Shown here in pieces: positions 12,301-15,300 of a stretch of 64,000 nt of DNA; within the stretch, counting starts at the first letter, position 1, and the number at the start of each line of letters is the position of its first letter. The DNA comes from Candidatus Omnitrophota bacterium (GTDB lineage Bacteria; Omnitrophota; Omnitrophia; Omnitrophales; Aquincolibacteriaceae). A program made the position numbers and the translations under genes. The stretch is from contig JAZDJU010000098.1 in the NCBI GenBank assembly GCA_043803685.1, forward strand, positions 1 through 64,000, written 5' to 3'. The notes beneath the pieces are model-generated. The model did no database searches, was not told the origin of the DNA, and was given only the letters and a program-made list of their open reading frames with translations.

Positions 12301-15300
12301 ATCAACCTATGTCGATCACATTCAGCGGAACTCGTTTGTGACACCGGAAGTCTTCTTCAAGTCCACCGGCAGGAAATTCCGTGATCCGGCGCAGAATTTT
12401 CACGTTGGGAGGAATGGCGCGAAGATCATCGGAGTTCTGCCTCAAAAAAGAGGATTTGCGAGACCCGACGGTCCGTTCACCGCTATTTATGGCTACGGTC
12501 CCAGCGAGTCTGATGAAAATTTCAAACAATTGAGCGGCATTCCGTTGCCTGGTTCGATCTATCGTTCTTTGGAGAATGGCAACGGTTCGCGTTCCAGGAA
12601 AAAGACGATGATCCAGAAGATGCGGAAAGCTATTTTGCAGTTAAGTGCTTACGGAGTGGGGTACCTGGGATTGCATGGGCTCAGGATCTTGGGGGGATTT
12701 GGAGGAGAGCGAGCGCAGAGGAGGTTGCTTCAATGGACCTATAGTCCGAGCCCCTCGTTGAGCCGGCTTGCTGCGGATGCGCTTTCGGAGGACCCCGCGG
12801 GGCTTGCGGAGCTTCTAAGGAAGAAGGATTTAAAGGACAATCTCTTTGATGCGGCGGCGGCTTTAATCTTGTCCTGGGGCATATCGGATAGAACGATCAT
12901 CGAACGAGTTCTCTTGGGGGTGAGTTCCAGAGATCTGACGAAATTGCCGCGACTGAATTCCGTTTTTCAAGATTTCTGGCGTCGTGTCCCTGAATCGGAC
13001 TTCAGCTATTGGGAAAAGGTTCTTGGAGAGCGGCTTGCAGAAGAAAGATCAAAGTTAGTGCAGGCCGGAGCTGTGATGTGGCTTGCCTGGGGAGTTCATC
13101 AAAAAATGAAGCTTTTAGAGGAGGCGCTCAACCATGTGTCCATACGGGCTTCGGCGATCCAGCAGCGTCGTTCGGAAGTGAGGGGGCAATTATTGGATGA
13201 CGGAAGGCGGATGGCGGATGGTGTAAAGCCTGCTTTGGCGTCATCCTCCATCCTCCATCCGCAATCCGCAGTCAAAGCCGCTCGTGCCGAAGCGAGGGAG
13301 GATCTGTTGCTGCCGGTGAAGGATGTGGTCCATATTGCGTTCGAATCGGCGGACTTTTTCGGAAAGGGCGGGCTCAAGGATGTGGTTCGAGATAAACCAC
13401 CGGCGCTTCTGAAGCATATGGGTGCAGCCCAGACGGTGATCATGCCGGGCCATCCTTCGGTTTTCGAGCAAGGCAAGAATGCGCCGAAATACAAGGTTGA
13501 AAATGCCGGTTTTACGCTCGATTTTCCGATCGAAGGACGTATGGAGACTTTTGAAGTTTTCACGGCGAATGCAGACGGGGTGCGTTACTATTTCATCAAG
13601 AAAGACGGCTACTTCCTAAACGGGTACCGGAGTCCCAATAGCCCCGAAGCTCTCCGGGAGTATGCGGTCTTTTCCAGGGCGGCCGTTGAGCTTCTTCGTA
13701 AAAGATTTGCTGAGAAGAAACCCGACGACATCCACTTGCACGATGCTCATCCGGCTTTGGCGGCGCCTTTTATGAGAGCCGCGTTTCCTCAGGAATTCCA
13801 GACATCCGGGATTGTCACGACGATTCATAATGCGGATCCGGCGTACCAGCAAAGGTTTTCTCCAGAGCTTTTTCAATACGGCAAATCGCTCCTGATGTCC
13901 ATGGGGATGCCGGAATGGGTCTTCGGCTGGCAGTACCTGGAATTTCACGGCGGACTCAATCTCATGAAAGCGGGATTGGTTTTTTCGGAAAAGTTCACGG
14001 CGGTGAGTCCCGGATACCGTCGGGAGCTTCTCGAGGATCCGGACACGGGACTGCGTGATATTTTCCGGCTCCGGCAGAATGATTTTGCGGGTATTTTAAA
14101 CGGACTTTCTGGAGATATTTGGAATCCTGCGACGAGCAAGAACGTCTATGTTCAATATGACTCAGAAACCGTGGAGGATGGCAAACGTCAGAATAAGCTT
14201 CCGTTCCAGAAGGAAACCGGACTTGATCAAGATGAGGACGCCATTCTTGTGGTGGCCATCACAAGGCTTGCCGACCAAAAAGGTCCAGAGCTGATCCTTG
14301 AGGAAGCCCGTCGCCTTTTAAAACGGCATCCCAATGTCCAGTTCGCCATCATGGGAGAGGAGAACGAATATGCCAAGGGTTTTCGCGATCTTATGAAAAA
14401 ATATCCCGGACGCGCGTATTTTACGGCAAGGTTCGGGGAAGCTTTTGCACAGAAGGTGTTGGCCGCGGGAGATCTCTTTCTCATGCCGTCAAAGTACGAG
14501 CCTTGCGGTTTGAGTCAGCTTCAGGCTCTTCGTTATGGAGTCGTTCCTATCGGGCACGGTGTGGGAGGGATCGATAGCACGATCATTGATCCCAGTGAGG
14601 ATGCTGCCAAGGCTACCGGCTTCAAATTTTACTATCCCGGTTTAAAAAAGATAAAAAACCTGAAGCAGACACCCGACTTTAAAAAGGTTATGGCCCGTTT
14701 TGACAAGGCAGTCGAGCGTGCCATTTGGTTGAAGGAAGAAGATGCCAAAGCTTTTAACGCGATGCGCGTTCGTGGGATGGGGTCTGTGCGTGATTGGGAT
14801 TCTTTCGTGCCGGATTACAGGGAGCTTTACAGCGCCGCGCGCGTCAACGCGTTTCGACTGAACCACATTCCCATTCTTGAGGCTGCTCGCTCGGAAGTGA
14901 GGGGGCAATTACCGGATGACGGAAGGCGGATGGCGGAAGGCGGGAAAATACAGGGTGTCGGAGGGTTGGCAGCGGATGGCGAAAAACCAGAAACGTCATC
15001 CTCCATCCTCCATCCTCCATCCGCGGCTAAAGCCGCTCGTGCCGAGGTGCGCGGGGCTCAGACCCAAGACTTCAGCCGCGAGACTGCAGTAAAAGCGGAA
15101 GGGGCGAGTTCTCGGTCTGCAGTCAGCAGTCTGCCGTCTGTTGTCTCGGGCGAAGCCGCTCGTGCCGAGGTGCACTCGAATCTTGTTGATTCCAGTATTA
15201 CTCGGCCGGCGACAGAGGAAATTCGCCGTGCCGAATTGAGGACAATGCCTGCGGTCAAGGAGATCGATAGTGTGTCGGTGGTAAAGGTCACACGCTGGTT

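Follow-up and report, generated by a model that had tools for sequence, protein, structure and literature searches.

Viral polyproteins carry many proteins in one open reading frame (ORF), with a short recurrent motif at the junctions and a protease acting in cis; integrons hold arrays of exchangeable gene-sized units, whose attC palindromes have the consensus core sites RYYYAAC and GTTRRRY at their ends. Here we analyze a stretch of 64,000 nucleotides from a Candidatus Omnitrophota bacterium (assembly GCA_043803685.1, contig JAZDJU010000098.1, positions 1 to 64,000; hereafter the window), in which the giant ORF O2, situated between two paralogous giant ORFs, O1 and O3, contains a glycogen synthase (GlgA) module with a palindromic linker on either side. 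The Omnitrophota giants, for which a cis protease is predicted, differ from viral polyproteins in being cellular and multi-copy and in exchanging modules among paralogues and species. Like integron cassettes they form arrays of exchangeable gene-sized units, here with a palindrome beside the one GlgA unit of O2; they differ in that the units are fused in one frame and the unit boundary is a coding motif and not a hairpin.

MARTX toxins offer a cellular comparison: as the available text of one account describes (PMC6315884), they are giant secreted proteins with conserved ends, a variable central array of enzymes and recombination variants, and their in-built protease has been shown to cut between the modules, as we predict for the Omnitrophota giants. 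The latter are distinguished by a Tiki-like, N-terminal head, a strict pentapeptide at the joints, a cargo of metabolic and signalling enzymes, up to ~15 paralogues per genome and crossover within motif codons; no Pfam family of MARTX glycine-rich repeats or cysteine protease domains was matched in O1, O2 or O3. Closer in lineage, the Archaeovorins (10.1101/2023.11.21.568195) and the giant multi-enzyme clusters (10.64898/2026.06.07.730766) likewise combine a signal peptide with many unrelated enzyme domains, and the accessible portions of both papers report frequent GT5 glycogen-synthase-like domains and a suspicion of cleavage. The 2023 preprint, as far as its available text goes, gives the cleavage points as unknown and names C39 and S8 peptidases (10.1101/2023.11.21.568195), and the strings 'motif', 'cleav', 'polyprotein' and 'shuffl' have no match in the main text of the other (10.64898/2026.06.07.730766). 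Supplements aside, the junction motif, Tiki-like head and motif-centred recombination described below do not appear in these two papers or in PMC10066038; likewise, the partly covered literature, at the level of abstracts, held no description of the motif strings, of heptamer tandem inverted repeats or of Omnitrophota Tiki proteins or polyproteins.

On balance, we favour a model in which the GlgA module is an interchangeable unit bounded by the pentapeptide R[S/A]ExR, crossovers fall in the first ~5 bases of this motif, and the translated chain is likely cut by the conserved head domain. O2 has 15 such motifs, which divide its modules from one another and of which the RSExR ends of the two linkers are a pair. 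In the 84 giant genes of this genome and 18 congeners we counted 925 R[S/A]ExR motifs, whereas RSExR turns up 11 times in the 667,562 aa that other ORFs encode. Module boundaries and motif fall together: when the ends of 87 internal protein matches at >=50% identity were mapped, 203 of the 348 ends fell within -8 to +12 aa of a motif, compared with 24.6 expected and a maximum of 36 in 300 randomisations. The motif also keeps company with the head in this genome: of the 15 head-bearing ORFs, 13 contain 4-28 motifs, and of the 38 5'-complete ORFs that lack the head and measure at least 1000 aa, 37 are motif-free. Between orthologues, the internal cargo turns over completely. The nine compared O2 orthologues (of 14; the other five were not caught by the head-motif filter) share the head (37-57% identity), two of them also part or all of the tail, and none has an internal module in common with O2 at E<1e-5. 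The proposal of the first-pass annotation that the gene is a cassette array is borne out by this contrast.

Codon usage within the motif indicates selection on the peptide. Following RSE[VMAITSL], the last position is an AGR arginine codon 268 times and an AGY serine codon once; the motif serine is itself AGY-coded 40 times, and codons for other residues that lie one step from the first Arg codon are seldom found. Because of the 268 to 1 ratio and the AGY-coded serines, a pure DNA-level signal can be ruled out. The DNA is nevertheless constrained as well. The first arginine codon is CGY in 136/161 motifs of this genome, 554/675 of the congeners (277 expected) and 177/226 of further loci (103 expected), against 43% for arginine in matched context outside motifs. 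Motif serine is AGY in 4/161, 42/675 and 9/197 cases, respectively, versus 33%, and codons of the last arginine are near background. (The further-loci scan scored 60 of 71 loci, and six duplicates were excluded from the codon counts.) Codon-pair bias as the source of the CGY/TCN preference was ruled out by the context controls. Taken together, the codon data indicate that the motif is constrained both as peptide and as DNA.

To place the crossover within the motif, we compared independent junction pairs that share one flank alone, at a 70% flank identity threshold. Base -2 is identical in 23/29 upstream-sharing but 9/31 downstream-sharing pairs, whereas the reverse holds at base 8 (15/29 versus 26/31) and base 14 (13/29 versus 24/31). 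At base 2, identity is high in both classes (23/29 and 20/31; null 0.35-0.36). The same pattern is seen at 65% and 75% flank identity. Thus, by this sequence comparison, synonymous bases from about position 8 on follow the downstream module and flanking bases up to -1 follow the upstream one, and the crossover appears to lie approximately in the first five bases of the motif, CGY[T/G]C. This pentamer is present at 127/131 recently exchanged junctions and 636/806 others (p 2e-8), and the excess holds when one junction per cluster is counted (~50/52, p 0.001). At exchanged junctions the wobble bases of x and of the last Arg show no comparable excess, a result that does not support the youth of the copies as its cause. 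Near-identical duplications (99-100%) also break inside the motif or at its edge. Two of these run from motif to motif, a 291-bp module at 100% identity in L094 (G010:C12) and a module of ~645 bp at 99% in L096 (G006:C23); they may be very recent events or of assembly origin.

The GlgA module of O2 is complete (TIGR02095, 333 bits against a cut-off of 328.45; profile positions 2-476 of 477). It recurs at 68% identity in G019 and at 32-36% in G007 and G010, in other giant genes whose heads are just 27-31% identical to that of O2, which upholds the earlier claim that it behaves as an in-frame cassette. The same annotation had expected orthologue breakpoints to fall in the palindromic linkers; instead, in all three relatives the module begins and ends at an R[S/A]ExR motif and is hairpin-free. 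The genome also has two stand-alone glgA genes of the ordinary kind, whose identity to the module is 32-34%, so the O2 copy is an extra, divergent glgA. In place of K-x-G-G-L, which we take to be the ADP-glucose motif of GlgA, the corresponding region (13340-13378 in O2) reads FFGKGGL in O2 and G019 and FFEVGGV or FFEAGGV in G007 and G010, while the stand-alone enzymes of the genome read FIKTGGL and FAKTGGL. The remaining conserved GlgA motifs are retained in O2. The donor specificity of the module may differ from that of the stand-alone enzymes.

The head comprises the first ~590 aa behind the leader, is conserved, and was matched in 61/61 genomes sampled from the order; where its relatives among GTDB genomes are named, they are Omnitrophota or Omnitrophica and one 'Ca. 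Taenariivivens'. A His, a Glu, an Arg and a second His are invariant in all 28 aligned heads (26 of 67 congener genes and two from the window, after filtering), with spacings His-(28)-Glu and Arg-(28)-His. The available text on RRSP gives a spacing of 28 for H3902/E3930 and of 29 from Arg to His (PMC6254334). In spacing, the head is in line with the 2His/2Glu plus Arg set of RRSP, apart from its variable first acidic position. An AlphaFold model of the head (pLDDT 80.6) matched EreC (Z 9.0, rmsd 11.3, 198 aligned), HopBA1 (8.9; 4.1, 167), BcR135 (8.5; 4.6, 164), the BcR136-type 2qgm (8.4) and ChaN (7.8); five of the top six rows in VIA-align belong to the Tiki/TraB/EreA/ChaN superfamily, at Z 7.8-9.0. 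ChaN Pfam matches, weak and below cut-off, were found in 13/28 members. In common with this superfamily, RRSP included, the head has a predicted parallel beta-sheet core, a His-Glu pair, a basic residue and a distal His; it is set apart by a large helical insertion between the motifs, a variable first acidic residue and scores below Pfam cut-offs (PMC6254334, available text). The model gives moderate support to a Tiki/EreA/ChaN fold, and the head is likely to be a hydrolase acting on R[S/A]ExR.

Several observations weigh against our favoured model. The fold scores of 8-9 are close to the level that the tool terms common, and an unrelated methyltransferase equals the superfamily matches at Z 8.5; Foldseek of the head against the PDB returned nothing at E<=0.001, and a profile search of PDB sequences with the head found no relative. 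Two positions ahead of the first His, the acidic residue varies (T/S/N/D/E), and the Tiki superfamily has non-protease members, namely esterases, heme-binding ChaN and PMT, according to the accessible part of PMC6254334. The head lies behind a signal peptide while GlgA and the kinases are of cytosolic type, which complicates the topology of self-cleavage. Seven of 60 further head-bearing loci are motif-free in the stretch covered. The crossover mapping draws on related genomes, with 20-41 pairs in each class; moreover, some upstream linkage is seen at base 11 (19/29, p 0.01), and a single pair of 99% identity has the whole motif in common at both ends, so the crossover point is not fixed. Finally, BLAST ends are drawn towards any common motif, and of 51 DNA matches at >=75% identity just 16 starts and 13 ends fall at a motif; therefore, other exchange routes exist.

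We propose the following model of module exchange and processing. Short-homology crossover between motif copies would move whole modules in frame, within and between giant genes. Since every junction would restore the in-frame motif within which the crossover lies, the reading frame and a putative processing site on both sides of the module would be preserved. The translated chain would then be cut at the motif by its own head or, in trans, by that of a paralogue, and selection would hold the motif peptide on account of this cut, comparable to the one that the MARTX cysteine protease domain makes between effectors. Cleavage, export and the function of the released enzymes are what we infer from this arrangement, and microhomology is, by inference, the most likely crossover route in place of an enzyme. 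With the motif, giant ORFs can be split into units by an exact rule; the head is a candidate for the enzyme; and the crossover mapping suggests how congeners come to have the same head and tail yet no common cargo. If true, a single short sequence that works in DNA exchange as well as in protein processing would be an unusual bacterial means of building and varying polyproteins. We read the system as a form of modular giant protein that is probably self-processed, and in which the junction code would serve DNA exchange and, probably, proteolysis.

It is possible, if rather unlikely, that modules are shuffled at the motif but the peptide is never cut, serving instead as a signal for binding, sorting or chaperones, on a giant that stays whole and anchored in the membrane, while the head acts on another substrate. 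The published view, in the text available, is indeed of intact membrane-anchored or surface proteins (10.64898/2026.06.07.730766; PMC10066038), and the non-proteases of the Tiki superfamily fit such a head (PMC6254334, in part). An uncut peptide sits less easily with the strict selection on five residues at nearly every joint, 4-residue tandem motifs included, with the complete enzymes found between motifs, and with the tight co-occurrence in cis of the motif and a head that retains hydrolase residues.

A dedicated recombinase or nuclease that reads the motif DNA and swaps strands in a ~5-base overlap, CGY[T/G]C, seems unlikely to us. It would explain why crossovers gather at bases 0-4 and are not spread evenly over 0-8, why base 2 matches in both classes of junction pair while upstream-sharing pairs show a weak match at base 5 (13/29; null 0.33), and why, order-wide, codon choice is restricted in the first two codons and no others. 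The DNA logo of the motif, however, is empty beyond 15 bases, too little for a classical site; the 97% CGY at exchanged junctions equals the prediction of frequency-dependent microhomology (~0.97, computed from counts); and no recombinase was present among the genes recurring beside 71 loci, whose recurrent neighbours read, by eye, as housekeeping. With similar reserve we regard the more ambitious proposal that the 15 junction bases are at once the recombination site of a dedicated enzyme (core CGY[T/G]C) and the protease site of the head, with complete enzymes brought in this way into exported polyproteins and set free as separate effectors, for example in host or prey cells. One candidate, a tyrosine recombinase (G000:C34:11916-13187) situated 0.6 kb upstream of the giant gene on that contig, was set aside as it does not recur beside relatives; it adjoins a tRNA-like sequence (by eye) and is read as an island integrase.

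We also examined the two linkers around the GlgA module. Both lie in frame where the first-pass annotation placed them (Table 1) and encode RSEVRGQL.DDGRRMA...SSSILHP.SA.KAARAE.R, with 1719 bp, a multiple of three, from one motif start to the other. They form a true direct repeat, one arm matching between the copies at 92% (53 bp, E 6e-16) and the other at 90% (52 bp, E 9e-14), and the loop of the right linker is 36 bp longer. An assembly artefact is ruled out because the copies differ by substitutions as well as by this insertion. The claim that each copy is a hairpin held for one of them: as single-stranded DNA (ssDNA) the left linker folds with z -2.9 (+) and -3.4 (-), a stability reached by 0/200 shuffles, while the right linker (14903-15052 folded) is no better than shuffles (z +0.14 and -0.41). 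The linkers are themselves motif-to-motif units, and of 855 such units 119 are short, 10 of these with a heptamer array. Base 2 is mismatched between their opening motifs, and their closing motifs are identical as far as base 7, so that on sequence the linkers appear to obey the general crossover rule, with the right spacer a probable diverged duplicate of the left. A short spacer would have gained a dispersed heptamer hairpin and then been duplicated motif to motif, producing the direct repeat around GlgA. As a local side effect, such a repeat could permit an occasional in-frame loss of 1719 bp (GlgA and one spacer) by short-repeat recombination, in favour of which stand the length and identity of the in-frame arms. 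We consider this doubtful: similar short spacers flank only the O2 GlgA among the 473 modules of at least 150 aa in the 84 giant genes (score 42, next 13), and, as the copies have diverged and differ by 36 bp, there is no trace of ongoing homogenisation.

The hairpin arms are built of tandem 7-base units, and period 7 is prevalent genome-wide, with 171 arrays compared with 4-47 for periods 5, 6 and 8-11. The unit family of the linkers accounts for 16 paired hairpins genome-wide, with 0 in the reversed order. They are spread over the heads of giant genes, ordinary genes and the DNA between genes, with two in the head domain of O2 itself and five in intergenic DNA or short ORFs. The hairpin core was matched in 10/19 congeners. 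Of the 195 heptamer arrays in the 84 giant genes, 160 precede the first motif, 21 lie <=40 aa from a motif, 10 lie deeper inside modules and 4 past the last motif (three of these being N runs). At corresponding loops, orthologous heads (L035-L050) have other heptamer families or lack them, and one family often fills several loops of a gene, a pattern that suggests concerted replacement. Four loops of the O2 head hold in-frame arrays, the three in Table 1 and one at 5164-5232. Since they are dispersed, concentrated before the first motif, and replaced or absent at orthologous loops, we read the hairpins as replaceable passengers tolerated in flexible loops and joints, like Rickettsia palindromic elements (RPEs). 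[quoted passage not shown] Three of five genes of the four-helix-bundle family TIGR02436 have a heptamer array within ~150 bp at a strict threshold.

The idea that the palindromic linkers are attC-like ssDNA hairpin sites, at which a recombinase excises or inserts the GlgA cassette, is very improbable and largely refuted, for although a real in-frame direct repeat with dyad symmetry surrounds a whole enzyme and the left linker folds well, neither strand of either linker has RYYYAAC/GTTRRRY cores, the right linker folds no better than chance, breakpoints lie at the RSExR codons of the linker ends and not at the dyad, such flanks occur once where every cassette should have a site, the GlgA module is hairpin-free elsewhere, and most heptamer arrays lie in the unshuffled head region. 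A search of the genome, which is 91% complete, for the enzymes that had been proposed alongside was positive for three Y1 HUH transposases and negative for IntI above cut-off (13 TIGR02249 matches, the best at 95.6 bits against 265); there were 10 matches to tyrosine recombinases. One of the transposases lies ~1 kb after a motif-free 5124-aa ORF. Hence, the hairpin-as-attC part of the original idea is not supported, while its intuition of a cassette array is.

Table 1. Features of the window (positions without prefix) and of other contigs of the genome
Feature	Position	Strand	Remarks
ORF O1, third paralogous giant ORF, 3' end only	2..3013	+	5 motifs
Giant ORF O2	3356..16111	+	4251 aa; Sec-type leader (by eye), predicted Tiki-like head, conserved C-terminal domain
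Head domain of O2, predicted Tiki/EreA/ChaN fold	3449..5212	+	invariant H82, E110, R535, H563 (O2 numbering)
Heptamer tandem-inverted-repeat hairpin, linker family	3822..3925	.	in frame, O2 head-domain loop
Partial further hairpin copy, linker family	4341-4385		O2 head
Second paired hairpin, linker family	4735..4816	.	O2 head-domain loop
O2 PAS / histidine kinase / receiver hybrid sensor	7355..11014	+	motif-bounded module
Left spacer module	13169..13297	+	38 aa motif to motif; hairpin core 13194-13261
RSEVR motif opening left spacer	13169..13183	+	CGTTC GGAAGTGAGG; motif base 2 alone differs from the copy at 14888
RAEAR motif, start of GlgA module	13283..13297	+	
Glycogen synthase (GT5) module, motif to motif	13283..14902	+	
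Right spacer module	14888..15052	+	50 aa, RSEVR to RAEVR; hairpin arms 14913-15023
O2 spacer of another heptamer family	15038..15226	+	81% identity over 125 bp with 11624-11748
O2 last motif (RAELR) and C-terminal domain	15227..16111	+	57% identical to that of the G010 orthologue
Giant ORF O3, paralogue of O2	16287..32363	+	5358 aa, same head, 28 motifs, hexokinase module
Giant-ORF ends in window	3005-3013, 16103-16111, 32355-32363		
Stand-alone glgA	G000:C10:35112-36383 and C117:35013-36455		
TIGR02436 genes near heptamer arrays	G000:C103:50834, C79:9060, C129:31853		
Y1 HUH transposases	C72:67197, C106:35623, C16:13983		C72 is the contig of the motif-free 5124-aa ORF

Further observations concern the giant genes at large. 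Seven head genes (L122, L137, L159, L160, L167, L171 and L172) have no R[S/A]ExR in the 1240-3950 aa covered, and such genes may use another junction motif. Nearly all complete members of the giant family have an amphipathic-looking C-terminal stretch that closes in -SA or -AA, a possible export or anchoring signal.

O3 contains a complete, motif-bounded hexokinase module at 26136-27722. O2 and O3 have two short spacer modules in common, 7211-7305 with 27723-27817 and 11043-11080 with 23053-23090, at 86% and 92% identity, which by their sequences point to recent exchange between the adjoining paralogues. Within O3, an acidic 79-bp pair at 73% identity lies at 28545-28710, and a 180-bp module-end repeat at 85% (19022-19201 and 20624-20803) stops at a motif.

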